This document shows, one piece after another, positions 5,925 to 61,668 of a stretch of 64,000 nt of DNA. The stretch is from Nitrosopumilaceae archaeon (GTDB taxonomy: Archaea > Thermoproteota > Nitrososphaeria > Nitrososphaerales > Nitrosopumilaceae). Where the stretch lies: positions 1,856,001 through 1,920,000 of the forward strand of contig CBDCCK010000002.1 in assembly GCA_965214835.1 (NCBI GenBank), given 5' to 3'. A program made the translations under genes and the position numbers. Numbering within the stretch: position 1 is the first letter of the stretch; each line of letters begins with the position of its first letter. The notes below the pieces were generated by a model. It was not told where the DNA came from. It did no database searches and saw only the letters and a list, made by a program, of their open reading frames with translations.

Positions 5925-7018
5925 TACTGATGGTCATTGAAAATTTCGCCTGATCACACATCTTGTAAAGGTTTATAGCTCCCCACCATGTCACTCCCGG
6001 CATGAACAAGACGAAAACCCTCACGGATGCCATGCGTGTCGAAAAGGATCTCAAGATTCACACCAGAATCCTGGCGGTGCGCTCCGTGCTGCTTGGCAAC
6101 ACCACCGCACAGACCGCAGAGATTGCCAACGTGACACAGCGTACAGTACAGATGTGGGTTGAAAGGTTCGAGCTTGACGGCATTGACGGCCTCCGTGACT
6201 CCCCTGACAGGGGCAAAAAGCCAAAGGTTCCGGTCGGCAGGATAAAAAAGATCGCCACGAGGCTGCGCAGGATGGAAAAGCTCACCCCGAAGAAGCTGTG
6301 CAACTGGGTACGCCACAGGCTGCATGTCACATACAGCGTGGGAAGCATCAGGAGGATCCTGCGCGCGATGGGGTTTTCGCTAAAGACATCAACTACCAAG
6401 CTGGCAGATGCTGCCGACGCAAAAGCTGTAAGACGGTGGCAAAGAGAGGCAAAAACTGCGATAAAGCTTGCAAAAAGGCGCGGATTTAGGATAACCGTAC
6501 AGGACGAATCGATATTCGTCAGTACGGGAAGGGACGGCAAAAAGTTCTGGTCGCCCGTGGGGGACAGGATCGAGGTGGAACGATCCGGCAGAAGGGAGCG
6601 CGTCGTGGTATACGGGACGATTGCAGACGACGGAACCAGGCTGATGCGCACGTACGACAGGTTCAACAGCGCAAACTTTGTGCATTATCTTAAACAGGCG
6701 CACAAAAAGTGGGGAAAGGTCCTGATGGTGATGGACAACGCAGCACAGCACAAGACCAAAAAGGTCCGCAGATACCTAAAGAAAAATCCCGACGTTGTCT
6801 TGCTGTACCTGCCGGTAGCTAGGCCGGAGCTGAGCGCCATAGAGGCAGTCTGGAAGGATGCCAAGTACAGGCTGGTCACGTCTGCCTTTTACGACACGGT
6901 GGATCACCTCAAAAAGGCCGTCTCGGAATACTTTAGGACGTGTTCCATCAGGGTTGACATCTACAAGTATCTTGAGCGCAGCTTGTAAGGGAGGCGAAAT
7001 TTTCAATGGTCATCAGTA
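5925..7018 (+). mobile_element. IS630-family element, apparently intact (transposase 6002-6988)
   Basis: TIR TACTGATGGTCATTGAAAATTTCGCCT, TA duplication, motifs 'QDES', 'MDNAAQH' and 'PELSAIEAVW'. Confidence 0.92.
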
Positions 7019-7140
7019 TAGTCTGTCACAACAAATGATGCGAAATGATCAAAAAGTTCTTGGAAAAAAGTTGGCTTGTCAGTATAAAAAGAACCTGATG
7101 TTGTACACTGCCGTGAGTCGGTTACTTTTGGGAAGACTGA

Positions 7141-7167
7141 GGATACGGATAAGATTTCATATAGCGT
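7141..7167 (-). mobile_element. IS110 subfamily-B left-end remnant
   Basis: Near-identical (one mismatch) to the first 27 nt of the left ends at 53554 and 61668. Confidence 0.65.
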
Positions 7168-20154: not shown

Positions 20155-20245
20155 ACGTTATATCAAATCTTATCTGTGGCGGACGCCATATTATCCGTGT
20201 TGGGCCCAAGAGCCGAAATAACTTTGCCACATACGAGGGCGTGTA
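20155..20245 (+). mobile_element. IS110 subfamily-A left-end remnant
   Basis: Near-identical to 53048-53138 and preceded by GTAAGAG. Confidence 0.75.
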
Positions 20246-20255
20246 TGATCTGGAC

Positions 20256-52239: not shown

Positions 52240-52985
52240 TGTCTGAAAGCATTGCTTTAAGATTAGAAAATGTTTCAAAAACATTTCGTATTCGATCAAA
52301 TAAAGACAGTACACTGTTTGAATTTTTAACCTCTTTTTGGAAAAATAATGTTGATGAAGAATTGAAAGTTTTACAAAATATCAACCTAACTATTCACAAG
52401 GGTGAGACATTAGGAATATTGGGTCTTAACGGAGCTGGAAAAAGCACACTATTAAAAATTTTAGCACAAATCTACGCTCCTGACTCTGGAACATTGCACG
52501 TTAATGGGAAATTAACCCCTTTCTTGGATCTAGGTACTGGATTTAATGGAGAGCTTTCTGCACGAGAAAATGTTTATGTTTATGGCATATTGTTAGGATT
52601 ATCAAAGAAACAAATTACTGATAAAATAGGTGACATTTTTGAGTATGCAGAACTTGAAAAATTCAAAAACACAAAATTGAAGAATTTTTCTTCTGGCATG
52701 GTGGCAAGATTGGCATTTTCGACAGCTATTACCGTTGATCCTGATGTCCTGTTGGTTGACGAAGTTCTGGCAGTCGGCGATGCACTATTTCGCCAAAAAA
52801 GCTACAAAGCATTTTTAGACTTTAAACAGAAAAACAAAACAATAATTATTGTCTCTCACTCAGTAACCCAAATTCAAGATCTGTGTGACCGAGCAATACT
52901 ACTTTTCAACGGAAAAATTATTTCTGACGGTGTTCCTGATGTTGTTGCTAAAGAATATGCAAAACTAATTGACACTAAATCGTAA
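52239..52985 (+). CDS. wzt: Polysaccharide ABC exporter ATPase without a C-terminal carbohydrate-binding domain
   Basis: GLNGAGKST, FSSGM and VDEVLAVGD; 248 aa. Confidence 0.92.
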   Translation: MSESIALRLENVSKTFRIRSNKDSTLFEFLTSFWKNNVDEELKVLQNINLTIHKGETLGILGLNGAGKSTLLKILAQIYAPDSGTLHVNGKLTPFLDLGTGFNGELSARENVYVYGILLGLSKKQITDKIGDIFEYAELEKFKNTKLKNFSSGMVARLAFSTAITVDPDVLLVDEVLAVGDALFRQKSYKAFLDFKQKNKTIIIVSHSVTQIQDLCDRAILLFNGKIISDGVPDVVAKEYAKLIDTKS

Positions 52986-53047
52986 TTACGTTGTTGCGTT
53001 TTAACCACGGGTGTGAGGTCACGTAGTATTCACGGCTACCGTATGAG

Positions 53048-53303
53048 ACGTTATATCAAACCTTATCTGTAGCGGACGCCATATTATCCGTGTTGGGCCC
53101 AAGAGCCCAAGTAAACTTGCCACATATGAGGGCGTGTAAGAGACTGGCTCAGAGTAGGCGGACAACGAAATGCCACATCATCGAGGGCGAATGGGAGTTT
53201 TCCGTTCAGTTGGGCACACACACTTTGATCAACATGGAGGTGATATCATGATCAACATAGGAATAGACGTTCATAAGAAGACATGTATGGTAACCATCAA
53301 AGA
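53048..53303 (+). mobile_element. IS110 subfamily-A left end with a ~200-nt non-coding region and the transposase start
   Basis: GGAGGTG RBS followed by 'MINIGIDVHKKTCMVTIKE'. A second A-type left end starts at 53311. Confidence 0.8.
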
Positions 53304-53569
53304 GTAAGAGACGTTATATCAAACCTTATCTGTAGCTAGTTTGTTGCATAACCCTTCCTAAAATTTGAAATCTGACCGAAAATCACCAAAATGATCAACT
53401 AATCCTTACCGAAAAAGTAATGGATCATGAGGATGCCTCGTATGGTATACATTGACACAAACAGACAATGCAAAGTACGTAAAGAGGGGGGCAGGCCTAT
53501 ACTGACGATCATTGAAAATTTCGCCTGATTACACGTCTTGTGAAGGTTTATAGACGCTATATGAAATCT

Positions 53570-53735
53570 TATCTGTATCCTGTGATATACAATTACCGTT
53601 GGGCCTGAGAGTCGATGTGATCTTACCATGTACAAGGGTGTTTTATAGACTGACTCGTAACAGCAGGCGGAAAGCAATATACCGCGCAGACGGTGAATGG
53701 GAGATTCCGCCCGGATCAGGCATTTTGATCAAAAA
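53570..53735 (+). ncRNA. Putative bridge/seek RNA region (homologs at ~53065-53235 and ~61485-61650, the latter on the - strand); boundaries approximate
   Basis: Conserved non-coding leader containing TTTATAG (equal to the target flank plus core) and ATGGGAG (equal to the right end plus core). Confidence 0.6.
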
Positions 53736-53958
53736 GGAGGTGATAACATGATCAACTCGGCCACAGCAGTACGAAACGACTCAAGACTTGGTTCTATATA
53801 TGAAAGGATAAGAAAGAGACGAGGATGGCAAAAGGCAAAGATTGTAGTTGCAAGGCACATGCTGGAGATAATCTGGCACATGCTGACCACCGGGGAGGAG
53901 TACCGCACTCAGAGCAAGACTCTCACGCAGAGAAAGTATAAGAGAATGCATCGCATAG

Positions 53959-55211
53959 TGATCTGGACCCCGTATTTTCGAACCACTTTTTGGGCGTTTT
54001 TGCGTAGCTCTGGCATCATCATTTGCCTGCCTCCCTTTGGTGCCGTACGACGAACTCCATCGGAGTGAGATATCCAAGTGAGGAGTGTATTCTGTCATGG
54101 TTATAGTCCCTAAATGCCTCCCTTATGACGTCTGAGGCGTCCTGGAAGGAGTCAAATTCATGGGGCCACAGGTATTCCCTCTTGATGCTTCCGTGAAACG
54201 ACTCTATGTGGCCGTTTTGTTCTGGCGTCCTGTATGCTATGAGCTCGTGTCTTATTCCCAGCTGTTTCAGGGACTCCCTGAACATGCGCGACGTATACTG
54301 AGAACCGTTGTCTGTCCGCAGGGTCAGCATGCTGCAGTCCGGATCTGCTGCCGATACCGCATCGAGTACGGCCTGAACCGCATTCTCCTTTTGCGCCGTG
54401 GTATCAAAGGAGTATGCAAGCCACCTGCGCGAAAAGGCATCAAGTACGTTGAAACAGTAGCACCAGCCGTCCCCGCCGCAGTCCACGTATGTGATGTCTG
54501 CCTGCCACAGCCGGTTGGGGGCATCTGGCCTTGTAAGCTTGCGCGAGGCCCGTATTATGTCGTTTTTGGTCTTTTTGGGCTCGATCCAGCCTATCTGGCG
54601 GTAGATTCGCTGTATCTTTTTGCGGTTTACGCGCACGCCAGTCTCGCGCAATATCTGGTTTGCCATCCTCCGGGTTCCGTACGTCGGCCTTTTCTTGCCT
54701 ATGGTACGTATGATTGAGACCGTCCCGGGGTCGGCTTTTCTGGCTCGTCTGTCGGCGTCCTTCCTGGCGTAATACCAGGTGCCCTTTGAGACGCCGCAGT
54801 ATTCCAGGGCTGTATTGAGGCTCATCTTCTGGTGGCAGATCTGTACGGCATTCATCCTTTGCTCAGCTCCATTGTTTTTTTTAAAGCGTCACAGGCCACT
54901 GCATACTCGCCTATGATGCGTTTGAGATTCTGGTTCTCCTTTTGCAGGGCAGCCGCTGCCTTGTCATTCCGGCCCAGGATGGATGCCTTGCCGCCCTCGA
55001 CGAACCTGTCCATCCACCTGCCAAACGTGGTGGGCGCGATGTTGTGCTTGCGGCACAGCTCGGCAGTGCTGATGCTGGTCTTGATGGACTCCATCACTAT
55101 GTCTGTTTTTTCGGCCAATGTGAACTTTTGTTTTTTCATGCCCCGTATGCCCTCCTGTCACATACAAATTCTACGCATTTGGGTGGTTCGAATTTTATGG
55201 GGTCCTCACCA
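53959..55211 (-). mobile_element. IS3-family element, intact (orfA 54852-55139, orfB 54019-54855)
   Basis: TG...CA TIRs, ATAG duplication, A8 slippery site, motifs 'WQADIT', 'TDNGSQY' and 'NGHIESF'. Confidence 0.92.
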
Positions 55212-57497
55212 ATAGCAACATTGTCCTGATTCGGAACATCACGCTGGCAAGGGTCCACGGTAGGATTAGGTACGATTTCATATGGGAGATCTCCGCCATG
55301 GCCATTCTGACATGAACAAGACGAAAATCCTCACGGATGCCATGCGTGTGGAAAAGGATACCAGGATTCACACCAGAATTCTGGCGGTGCGCTCCGTACT
55401 GCTTGGCAACACCACTGCACAGACCGCAGAGATTGCCGACGTGACACAGCGTACCATACAGATGTGGGTCGAGAGGTTTGAGCTTGACGGCGTTGACGGT
55501 CTCCGTGACTCCCCCAACAGGGGCAAAAAGCCAAAGGTTCCAATCAACAGAATAAAAAAGATCGCCATGAGGCTGCGCAGGATGGAAAAGCTCACCCCAA
55601 AGAAGATGCGCAACTGGGTGCGCCGCAAACTGCATGTAACATACAGCGTTGGAAGCATCAGAAGAATCCTGCGCACGATGGGATTCTCGCTAAAGACGTC
55701 AACTACCAAGCTGGCAAATGCTGCCGACGCAAAGGAGGTAAGACGGTGGCAAAGGGAGGCAAAAGACACGATTAGGCTTGCAAAAAGGCGCGGATTCAGG
55801 ATAACCGTACAGGACGAGTCGATATTCGTCAGTACGGGAAGGGACGGCAAAAAGTTCTGGTCGCCAGTGGGGGACAGAATCGAGGTGCAACGATCCGGCA
55901 GAAGGGAGCGCGTCGTGGTATACGGAACGGTTGCAGACGACGGAACCAGGCTGATGCGTACATACGACAAGTTCAACAGCATAAACTTTGTGCGTTATCT
56001 CAAGCAGGCGCGCAAAAAGTGGGGAAAGGTTCTGATTGTGATGGACAACGCAGCACAGCATAGGACCGGAAGGGTCCGCATGTACCTGGAGAAAAATCCC
56101 GACGTTATCCTGCTGTACCTGCCAGTAGCCAGGCCGGAGCTGAGCGCCATAGAGCCAATCTGGAAGGATGCCAAGTACATACTGGTCACATCTGCCTTTT
56201 ACGATTCGGCAGATCACCTCAAAAGGGATGTCTCGGAATACTTTAGGACGTGTTCCATCAAGGTTGACATCTACAAATATCTTGAGCGCCGCGTGTAATC
56301 AGGCGAAATTTTCAATGATCGTCAGTATAGTCGTCAAGTACAACCCGGAATGGGAGAAGGATCTCAAGGATGCCAACCGTCACAAGGAGGGCGCCCCGTT
56401 CCTGTATGCAGAAGGCATGATAATGGCCGCAGCAGCCCTTAGGACTGCATTAATGATGAAGTACAGACAGCTGTCAGGCATGCTCGGGGAGATGCTAAAG
56501 GGCGCGGACTCGCCGTGTTACACCACGATATTCAGGAGAATACAAAAGCTTGACGTCGACATTGCAGAGCACGTAATCACGGTGCGCGACAAGACCCGTA
56601 ACCTGGTCATGATAGCCGATGCCACTGGCCTCAAGCAGCACAACCGAGGCGAGTGGATATGCAAAAAATGGAAGGTAAGGCGCAGATTTGTCAAGATGCA
56701 CCTGATGGTCGACGCAGACACCAAGCAGGTGCTGGCAGTATCTGTCACAAGTGATGCAGTCGGCGACAGCACGGAACTGCCTATACTGCTTGAGGAGGTG
56801 ACCAAGAACACCAAGGAAGAGGAGCAGCAGCAGGAACGCACCGACGACGCAGATGCAGTCAAGATTCCCAACATGCTTGCAGACGGGATCTCACCGATGA
56901 CCCTGCTTGACACCGGCGCGAATCCTGATACGCCGGGAAAGATCCTGCTTGCAGATGGCGCATACGGCTCAAGGAAGAACGTAGCCGAGTGCCACAAGCG
57001 CGGCATAAAACCACTCATACGGCTCTTGACAAGCTGTACTGCAAAGGGCAAGGGCACCGGCGACAAGTGGGGCATGCTTGTACGGTGGCAGCTTGGGGGC
57101 GGCCCCGAGGTGCCGGTGGGTGATCTCTCAAAGGAGGAAAGACAGGAGAACCTGCGGTACTGGAAGAGCACGGTCGGCTTCGGCAGCAGGTGGATAGTCG
57201 AGATCGTGATATCGTCCATAAAGCGCATGTTCGGCGAGGGCGTAATGGCCCTCAAGTGGTCCAATGTGGTGCAGGAGGTAAAGCTGAGGATATGGCTGTA
57301 CAACAAGTGGATCGCAGAGGCGGTGGCTGCCATGTAGGAACCTGGTGCCTGTAGTGATCCGGACGGAACGACTTGGCTCTAGTCGGAGTTATGCAACAAA
57401 CTAGATGTTGTACCATATTCCGGCCAGTATTGTGCAGGTAGCGGGATTAGCACCTAGGTGTGTCAATTACGCATAAAGTCTAATATAATTATCGTCC

Positions 57498-60902: not shown

Positions 60903-61089
60903 AACCCATCTGTTTTTTAGAACTTTACGAAATAGATGCCTGTTATTTTTTCCTTGATCAAAGAATCGGGAGACTGCAGATGCGTCTGTGATCGTATGAG
61001 TTTACCCCGTCTCGAGGAATACGGCGCGGTAGGCACGATCATAAAGATCCCGGCCAGTCCTGTCGCCTGAGGGGTAAACTCGTACAGAC

Positions 61090-61668
61090 GTATCTACTAG
61101 ACATTCCATCATTTTATACTTTCTTTGCATGAGTTCATTGTTCTGCGTGTGGTATTCTGTTTCATAGGTCAACATGTGCCAGATCACCTTTGCAGGCGTT
61201 CTGGCCACGACTACCTTGGTCTTGACATGATGCGCCAGATGCACGTCTATTTGCACATCCTTAAGCATGTCATGCAGCAGAATCCAGTTCCCCGTAGCCT
61301 CGCAGACTGCACAAATCTTGCGTTCTGCATATCCCTAGCTGATCTGTCCTGCAAATTTTTTATCCCGTAGGTTGTGTTGGAAAACTCCGCCTGGTCCAGA
61401 ATCCCTGCAGTCTGGTCCTTGATGACTGCTACGTACGTCCTTTTATGGGCGTCTATTCCTACGTTGATCATGTTATCACCTCCTTTCTGATCAAAATGCC
61501 TGATCCGGGCGGAATCTCCCATTCACCGTCTTCTGCGCGGTACATTGCTTTCCGCCTGCTGTTACGAGTCAGTCTATAAAACACCCTTGTACATGGTAAG
61601 TTCCGATCGACTCTCAGGCCCAACAGTAATGGCATATCACAGGATACAGATAAGATTTCATATAGCGT
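61090..61668 (-). mobile_element. Degenerate IS110 subfamily-B element (left end intact, transposase internally deleted)
   Basis: 'MINVGIDAHKRT'; the leader is highly similar to 53554-53750. Confidence 0.8.

Follow-up and report, generated by a model that had tools for sequence, protein, structure and literature searches.

The 64,000-nucleotide (nt) stretch of DNA analyzed here, referred to as the window, corresponds to positions 1,856,001 to 1,920,000 (forward strand) of contig CBDCCK010000002.1 from a Nitrosopumilaceae archaeon (assembly GCA_965214835.1). It contains copies of an IS110-type insertion sequence (IS) that belong to two subfamilies, A and B. An original prediction, made from the sequence of the window, proposed that the noncoding left ends of these elements carry guides that match their targets and their own ends, as in a bridge RNA. 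The results presented here made it very probable that IS110-family elements (DEDD recombinases) of a Nitrosopumilaceae archaeon choose their insertion sites with a self-encoded, predicted bridge (or seek) RNA. The features that carry this conclusion are listed below; R1 is the covariance model of the RNA, and MITE is a miniature inverted-repeat transposable element.

53048-53303, plus strand: subfamily A element, cut off after about 255 bp and preceded by GTATGAG (53041-53047)
53090-53215, plus strand: predicted bridge RNA of the A copy (R1 134.9 bits, E 3e-32), with closing stem P1, target-binding module and donor-binding module
53109-53117, plus strand: A target loop, 5' strand; GTAAACT (53111-53117) is the reverse complement of AG+TTTAC, the MITE-target core and right flank
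53136-53144, plus strand: A target loop, 3' strand; GTAAGAG, equal to left flank and core, then AC, the element's first 2 nt
53163-53167, plus strand: A donor loop, 5' strand; CAACG, complementary to left-end nt 2-6 at 4/5 positions
53191-53197, plus strand: A donor loop, 3' strand; ATGGGAG, equal to right end and core
53554-55288, plus strand: subfamily B element within an IS630-family element; the final 2 nt (55287-55288) are the AG core
53559-53568 (left arm) and 55274-55283 (right arm), plus strand: 10-bp subterminal inverted repeat of B, by direct reading
53596-53721, plus strand: predicted bridge RNA of the B copy (R1 113.1 bits, E 1.1e-26), whose single-sequence minimum free energy (MFE) fold has the same architecture
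53615-53623, plus strand: B target loop, 5' strand; GATCT (53619-53623) is the reverse complement of AG+ATC, with 6/7 in the fixed register
53642-53650, plus strand: B target loop, 3' strand; TTTATAG, equal to left flank and core, then AC
53672-53676, plus strand: B donor loop, 5' strand; AAGCA, complementary to left-end nt 2-6 at 3/5 positions
53697-53703, plus strand: B donor loop, 3' strand; ATGGGAG, equal to right end and core (55282-55288)

Direct reading placed the motifs where the original prediction had them: in the B leader, TTTATAG (53642-53648) was identical to 53547-53553, and ATGGGAG (53697-53703) was identical to 55282-55288; in the A leader, GTAAGAG and ATGGGAG were found at 53136-53142 and 53191-53197. 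The B element (53554-55286) was flanked by TTTATAG on the left (53547-53553) and ATCTCC on the right, and the predicted AG at both junctions and 10-bp subterminal repeat were present. The corresponding repeat of subfamily A was 9 bp. The A copy at 53048 retained the left end, the RNA, and the first ~18 transposase codons. The B copy at 53554 had an internal deletion that left only the last ~70 codons of the IS110-type gene, and it was nonautonomous because of this deletion and the insertion of an IS3-family element. The element that hosts it contained a 338-amino-acid (aa) open reading frame (ORF) with DDE_3 and helix-turn-helix (HTH) domains, consistent with its proposed assignment to IS630.

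Structure of the predicted bridge RNA

The RNA was about 125 nt long; it preceded the transposase gene, and its start lay about 43 nt in from the left terminus of the element. Sixteen leaders from the source genome, a Nitrosopumilus metagenome-assembled genome (MAG), and three related genomes were aligned with MAFFT. For this alignment, RNAalifold predicted two modules, each capped by a hairpin, and a closing stem formed at long range, and a fifth stem (GCGGA/UCCGC) was added to the structure by eye. In the 16 leaders, 95.9% of the cells were paired, compared to 25-48% in slid controls, and eight pairs showed compensatory changes. The covariance model R1 matched 14 copies in the source genome and 19 of 151 genomes of the same family, representing 8 of 27 genera. 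One of these 19 genomes (G102) is unpublished and enters only that tally. R1 matched none of the 131 genomes searched that represent 33 further families in the phylum.

The R1-aligned set contained 43 hits, 41 of them distinct in sequence, and drew on 17 genome assemblies. In the distinct sequences, 94.1% of the cells were paired (slid controls, 31-47%), 17/26 pairs were compensatory, and none of 500 shuffles reached the covariation score. This set was fitted to the model and leans towards it; the independent MAFFT alignment gave the same picture. Helix 5, which is located in the donor module, showed compensatory changes in three of its four pairs. Three pairs in the structure were nearly always G-U or U-G and would be A-C on the opposite strand; therefore, the RNA is read in the direction of the transposase gene. 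The element end holds a structured RNA with two internal loops, the arrangement by which bridge RNAs and seekRNAs are recognized.

Sequences around the RNA were also inspected. A T/A-rich box (e.g., CTTATCT, GTTATAA, or GATATAA) was present at about nt 15-22 of the left end in all lineages, approximately 25 nt before the first position conserved in the RNA, and a short T-run followed the closing stem in most lineages. Judging by sequence and position, the box and the T-run could be an internal archaeal promoter and a terminator, respectively.

Guides, targets and their covariation

Among the model-aligned hits, the variable columns were both strands of loop 1 and the first five positions of loop 2. 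The right-hand target guide, which the original prediction had been unable to identify, was found 18 nt upstream of the left-hand guide (53111-53117 in the A copy and 53619-53623 in the B copy). For the comparisons with flanking DNA, 2 of the 43 hits (L058 and a partial copy in L006) were dropped for gapped guide columns. In 41 elements, the left target guide agreed with the five noncore flank positions at 5/5 in 22 elements, 4/5 in 13, and fewer in 6, and the cross-genome mean was 1.63 of 5. With one element per distinct guide (n = 25), 102/125 positions were identical, a value reached by none of 200,000 shuffles. In the case of the right target guide, the 24 elements with a right-end call had a mean of 3.29 of 5 with their own flanks versus 1.66 for cross pairs, and 53/80 positions were identical over 16 distinct guides (0/200,000 shuffles). 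The donor 5' guide, also represented by 16 distinct sequences, was complementary to left-end nt 2-6 at 57/80 positions (mean, 3.38 of 5; 0/200,000 shuffles) and did not pair across the core. In every element with an identified right end, this end was identical to the donor 3' guide ATGGGAG, which hardly varied among the hits.

The leader 7-mers were also enriched in the flanks. Specifically, an element's own 7-nt guide was found in its own 110-nt upstream region in 23/41 cases, versus 26/1582 mismatched guide/element pairs; thus, chance was excluded as the source of the guide/target match. Two further tests were replaced. A boundary-free test of the right guide, in which the 7-mer could lie anywhere downstream, gave 8/36 own matches versus 121/1216 cross matches and says little because the loci did not extend to many of the right ends and because some lineages have a register shift of 1-2 nt; the junction-based test was used in its place. 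A longest-common-substring test of the donor guide was weak (3.39 versus 2.62), and the fixed-register test was used instead. The guide/target covariation called for by the original prediction was found for all three variable guides: one strand of the target loop matched the left target and core, the other complemented the core and right target, and both covaried with their targets. The strands of the donor loop matched the right end and core and complemented the left end. In addition, the 2 nt that follow the core in the left guide were the first 2 nt of the element in 17/25 guide classes; AC, AT, and CC changed together on both sides, and AA was paired with AT in one lineage.

A search for left-end patterns in the genome (3.22 Mb, 52.6% G+C) identified 23 left ends, 14 of A type and 9 of B type. 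The 7-mers preceding the A ends were GTATGAG (seven), GTAAGAG (five), ACTAGAG (one), and GCATGAG (one), and those preceding the B ends were TCAGTAG (four, two of which are one segmental duplicate), TTTATAG (two), ATTATAG, TCTATAG, and GCAGTGG. The subfamily A target was the terminal inverted repeat of a ~95-bp MITE, which had 50 BLAST hits in the genome. Copies with the guides GTAAACT/GTAAGAG occupied GTAAGAG|TTTAC, and two A copies with the guides GTAACCT/GTATGAG occupied sites of the GTATGAG|GTTAC type. The subfamily B target was one fixed site in a subgroup of IS630-family elements, and a second B right end was found at the same site in another copy. Unfilled B sites, in which TTTATAG is followed by ATCTCC, were located at C2:962946 and 958793. 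The original prediction had placed the empty site at 5990-6000 in the window; the uninterrupted IS630-family paralog there does carry TTTATAG, at 5972-5978, and it belongs to a different subgroup in which the right half is CTCCCC instead of ATCTCC. The reconstructed empty B site had no match in the window at three or fewer mismatches. Empty sites in MITE ends and IS630-family copies carried a single AG, and filled sites carried AG at both junctions. Insertion was sequence specific, occurred without target duplication, and left a core dinucleotide common to both junctions. The targets were repeats, as is typical of the IS110 family.

No intact transposase gene was present in any window copy, as had been noted. 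The genome-wide search that the original prediction recommended found one complete A copy (C2:311701-313050, minus strand) with both ends and an uninterrupted 365-aa frame, located within a MITE terminal inverted repeat between GTAAGAG and TTTACCCC; its guide/target matches were perfect on both sides. The following feature lies outside the window.

L001:357-1454, minus strand: transposase P0001, 365 aa, of the intact copy

P0001 contained PF01548 (1.5e-25; N-terminal DEDD/RuvC-like domain) and PF02371 (8.7e-25; C-terminal Transposase_20) and scored 243.9 bits against NCBIfam NF033542, "IS110 family RNA-guided transposase" (cutoff, 140). It aligned with the IS621 recombinase in the PDB (E 4e-14), mostly over the C-terminal domain, with the SG motif and acidic residues aligned. 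By its DEDD domain and its Transposase_20 domain with SG motif, P0001 is an IS110-family transposase in the broad sense. An assignment to a subgroup by database names failed, as all plasmid matches were labeled just "IS110 family transposase." The transposases of three related genomes were 46-60% identical to P0001. In the elements described here, about 55-100 nt separated the stop codon from the right end. All other copies in the source genome were frameshifted, deleted, or truncated. The proposal that nonautonomous copies keep the RNA was confirmed by the presence of 14 R1 matches versus 1 intact gene in this genome and by RNA-only mini-elements of ~300 bp in two other genomes.

The mini-elements (L055 and L069 in G035 and L056 in G118) consisted of a left end, a full bridge RNA, and a right end ~115 nt past the RNA, and both flanks matched the guides at 6-7/7 positions. 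No transposase match to P0001 was found in G035 at E<=1e-30. At L006:1200-1498 (genome G003), a full element interrupted a partial element of its own kind, exactly behind the left guide of the interrupted copy (…CCGGCAG|AC); therefore, the guide-encoding DNA is itself a half-target.

The host is an archaeon, as predicted: the small-subunit rRNA (SSU) locus scored 1452.6 bits with the archaeal model versus 1089.2 bits with the bacterial model, and the only close relative in the species collection, and the nearest named one, was the MAG titled Nitrosopumilus (83% protein identity).

Other copies and neighboring repeats

The remaining copies in the window, and the element inserted in B, are as follows.

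53311-53336, plus strand: second A-type left-end fragment, 26 bp, preceded by GTAAGAG (53304-53310)
20155-20248, plus strand: A-type left-end fragment, ~95 bp, preceded by GTAAGAG
53964-55206, minus strand, boundaries approximate: IS3-family element within B, with an rve integrase ORF (54019-54855) and an HTH ORF (54852-55139)
61085-61668, minus strand: second B-type copy, with an internal deletion and the right end lost, adjoining a MITE and preceded by TCAGTAG
61498-61626, minus strand: RNA of the 61668 B copy, with a 5' target guide unlike that of the 53554 copy (ATCGGAACT)
7130-7167, minus strand: B-type left-end fragment, preceded by TCAGTAG and interrupted by another repeat

The 7-mers that precede the A insertions at 20155, 53311, and 53048 (GTAAGAG, GTAAGAG, and GTATGAG) and the B ends at 61668 and 7167 (TCAGTAG) were those originally reported. 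The B copy at 61668 and its flanks were duplicated, in identical form, at C2:1963219, ~45.5 kb away, which identified a segmental duplication. The MITE has the terminal inverted repeats GTAAGAGTTTACCCC and GGGGTAAACTCTTAC, and its window copy at 60991-61081 (minus strand) abuts the truncated B copy at 61085. A repeat with the end CAGTCTTCCC(A/G)GAAGTA breaks two B left ends with different flanks at the same position, ~28 bp in, and breaks one A copy elsewhere; its sites are window 7130-7167, C2:1764916, and C2:2303910.

A third set of right ends (C2:218637, 412449, and 1502154) was B-like and followed by TGGCGA(G/T)…, which points to one more subfamily that has a repeated target of its own; R1 detected no left ends or RNAs that would belong to them. 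Five other IS110-family genes (C2:513404-514453, 1472973-1473941, 1547904-1548872, 2027711-2028538, and 2873121-2873948) were 30-34% identical to P0001, and some had open frames of 329-379 aa. These loci had no R1 match and therefore presumably carry different RNAs. The closest plasmid-borne homolog, from a Halanaeroarchaeum plasmid (L077:542-660; 38% identity), had a ~300-nt upstream noncoding region. R1 matched this haloarchaeal region weakly (11.7 bits, E 0.033), which does not count as evidence for a shared RNA, and had no match at the locus of the Allorhizobium plasmid homolog.

Alternative explanations and relationship to known systems

The RNA-guided reading draws on direct observations: the structure, four correspondences between guides and DNA, the family to which the protein belongs, and targets that are sequence specific and recur. 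By analogy with IS621, ISEc11, and ISEc21, the RNA would be made, bind the protein, and direct a circle-mediated reaction. In the proposed mechanism, an RNA read from the transposase strand would fold into a long-range stem that closes two modules, each a stem, internal loop, and hairpin. The strands of loop 1 would specify both target halves, and those of loop 2 would specify both element ends. The recombinase-RNA complex would then bring the joined ends of an excised circle into synapsis with the target, and strand exchange would take place at the AG core without duplication.

Several results weigh against this reading. Support for the structure is comparative only, and thermodynamics add nothing: single-sequence folding energies were about those of shuffles (z of -0.38, 0.00, and -0.15), and the MFE structure of the window A copy was a different fold. 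An Rfam 15 scan of 52500-56500 at E<=1 gave no match, and none of the sequencing runs listed as holding the intact element was recorded as RNA. The shuffle counts given above overstate independence because the sequences are related. A single column in a MAFFT alignment of the upstream regions set the left-end boundaries, and right ends were called automatically by an invariant motif and subterminal-repeat rule that may miscall some. A second handshake, between the nt after ATGGGAG and the first right-flank nt, was unsupported (10/21 versus 131/396 cross pairs). Many copies matched their own guides imperfectly. Four A copies carry GTAAGAG and follow GTATGAG (6/7 on the left), at C2:1650576 the right end is mutated and the right flank does not match, and the fit of L024, L046, L067, and L003 is poor on at least one side. 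Only one transposase gene in the source genome is intact, and nothing shows recent movement. Finally, B ends at window 61668 and 7167 and at C2:2921329 follow TCAGTAG, and the only full RNA among these copies has the left guide TTTATAG, a 4/7 match.

For two of these misfits, the sequences offer possible explanations. MITE ends vary at the GTAAGAG/GTATGAG position, and copies with a GTATGAG guide coexist in the genome; the GTAAGAG-guide copies at GTATGAG would be explained if the mismatch is tolerated or if guides act in trans. In the case of TCAGTAG, which the original prediction had raised as a caveat, the lineage has a right guide unlike that of the 53554 copy, with the complement AG+TTCCGAT. 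Of the 196 occurrences of TCAGTAG in the genome, 3 continue with TTCCGAT (~0.01 expected), and 28 more continue with TTCC at sites that resemble the end of another repeat. The right flank of the TCAGTAG copies is unreadable because their right ends are lost. A retargeted right half fits these observations and would account for part of the misfit only, not for the mismatch of the left half. Half-matched insertion has been reported for IS621 in a preprint (10.64898/2026.08.31.748434).

An alternative reading is that the leader is only a 5' untranslated region (UTR) or translational control element, that the protein picks the target (e.g., via the subterminal repeats), and that the 7-mers are coincidence or copied flank. 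A strong Shine-Dalgarno-like sequence, GGAGGTGA, just downstream of the leader structure would suit such a role, as would the unexceptional folding energy and the lack of a run recorded as RNA among those listed. However, loop positions in a conserved scaffold track the flanks on both sides (25 and 16 guide sequences) and also the element's own left end, which a UTR has no reason to do, and homologous IS110-family proteins are RNA guided in experiments described in PMC11208160 and PMC11187229. We consider the UTR explanation highly improbable. It is less strained, and still unlikely, that function is confined to the first module, acting as a short seekRNA for target recognition, with the second module structural and the ends recognized mainly by protein via the 9-10-bp subterminal repeats. 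The right-end guide ATGGGAG never varies and therefore offers no covariation, the left-end guide is short (~5 nt) and imperfect, and IS1111-type elements with long subterminal repeats give abundant short seekRNA with target matches only (PMC11187229). Against this stand the covariation of the 5-nt donor guide with left-end nt 2-6 and the compensatory changes in the donor-module stems (helix 5).

The third alternative concerns activity rather than mechanism. The family may be extinct in the source genome, all copies being relics whose guide/flank matches record past events only. Thirteen of the 14 RNA-bearing copies lack an intact gene, and many copies lie within other ISs or are interrupted by them. 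At the intact locus, contigs of four DNA runs (one study, Logan) were fragmented repeat contigs with ambiguous joints, so the metagenome is too fragmented to compare empty and filled sites. The copy with the 365-aa frame, both ends, and perfect matches on both sides argues against extinction, as do open transposase frames in relatives from other genomes, and we regard extinction as possible but rather doubtful.

The proposed RNA-guided site choice was compared with known systems as described in the cited papers. Like IS621 (Durrant et al. 2024, PMC11208160; Hiraizumi et al. 2024, PMC11208158), the archaeal elements have a DEDD and Tnp_20 recombinase, a left-end RNA that precedes the gene, and a target-binding loop followed by a donor-binding loop, each with one strand for each side of a 2-nt core. 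They also insert without duplication, have repeats as natural targets, and have a 2-nt target-guide extension that matches the donor, like the handshake guides of IS621 (PMC11208158). In contrast to IS621, in which the 5' loop strand pairs with the bottom strand (PMC11208160), the top strand (right target or left end) is the partner of the 5' loop strand in all archaeal lineages here, and the 3' loop strand has the bottom strand as its partner. Further differences are a core of AG and not CT, a subterminal repeat of 9-10 bp instead of 2-3 bp, a handshake-like extension on the bottom-strand guide, an archaeal host, and weak protein similarity (E 4e-14).

The IS1111 group (ISEc11, ISPa11, and ISKpn4; Siddiquee et al. 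2024, PMC11187229) shares other features with these elements: read 5' to 3', the top-strand match comes before the bottom-strand match, the targets are ends of mobile elements or of other repeats, and the subterminal inverted repeats of B (10 bp) and A (9 bp) are within the 7-17 bp given for IS1111 (PMC11208160). The noncoding region is upstream of the gene here and downstream in IS1111 (PMC11187229), and the transposase, compared by length, is 365 aa versus the 330-350 aa quoted for IS1111. ISEc21, of IS110 type, resembles the archaeal elements in its upstream noncoding region, in a conserved target site inside another IS, and in natural redirection, seen there in the relative ISMch6; its top-strand match lies 3' rather than 5' of the bottom-strand match (all PMC11187229). 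RNAs are found in the left end in the IS110 group and in the right end in the IS1111 group (PMC11208160). The archaeal RNA is upstream in the left end, as in the IS110 group, and does not have that group's bottom-strand guide on the 5' side and top-strand guide on the 3' side. It shows the guide order of the IS1111 seekRNAs, the reverse of ISEc21 (PMC11187229), and that group's repeat length, and it does not lie downstream of the gene. Thus, the elements combine an upstream RNA with IS1111-like guide polarity and repeats.

A few elements with an unusual position of the noncoding region have been described (PMC11187229), archaeal IS110 recombinases have been cataloged (n = 662; 10.1101/2024.06.21.599552), and large bridge-RNA mining efforts have included archaeal genomes. 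We found no account of bridge RNAs in Nitrosopumilaceae or of the mix of upstream RNA and IS1111 polarity in the literature covered; paper supplements, which lie outside that coverage, may list them. We therefore raise only tentatively the idea of a third bridge-RNA architecture not singled out in print, which would be encoded in the left end, have mirrored, IS1111-like polarity and long subterminal repeats, occur only in one ammonia-oxidizing archaeal family among the genomes searched, and probably use an internal archaeal promoter and not a circle-junction promoter. If this idea is correct, the three TCAGTAG insertions, with their 4/7 left guide, would represent retargeting through the right-hand guide alone, and the ~300-bp RNA-only mini-elements would be mobilized in trans, carrying their own address.

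The sequence comparisons support well the view that the system is genuine and an expected member of a type of system that was reported from bacteria in 2024, from which it departs modestly in architecture; the finding leaves the known mechanism unchanged. In the portion of the literature covered, bridge recombinases were without experimental study in archaea. The 365-aa enzyme and ~125-nt predicted RNA of this mesophilic marine archaeon are a candidate ortholog for testing, and the 25 left, 16 right, and 16 donor variants are a natural set of reprogrammed archaeal guides. Guide polarity can be separated from the location of the RNA gene (left end), which bears on the divergence of IS110 and IS1111. 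In IS-rich Nitrosopumilaceae genomes, the elements would pile up at MITE and IS ends because their guides address those repeats.

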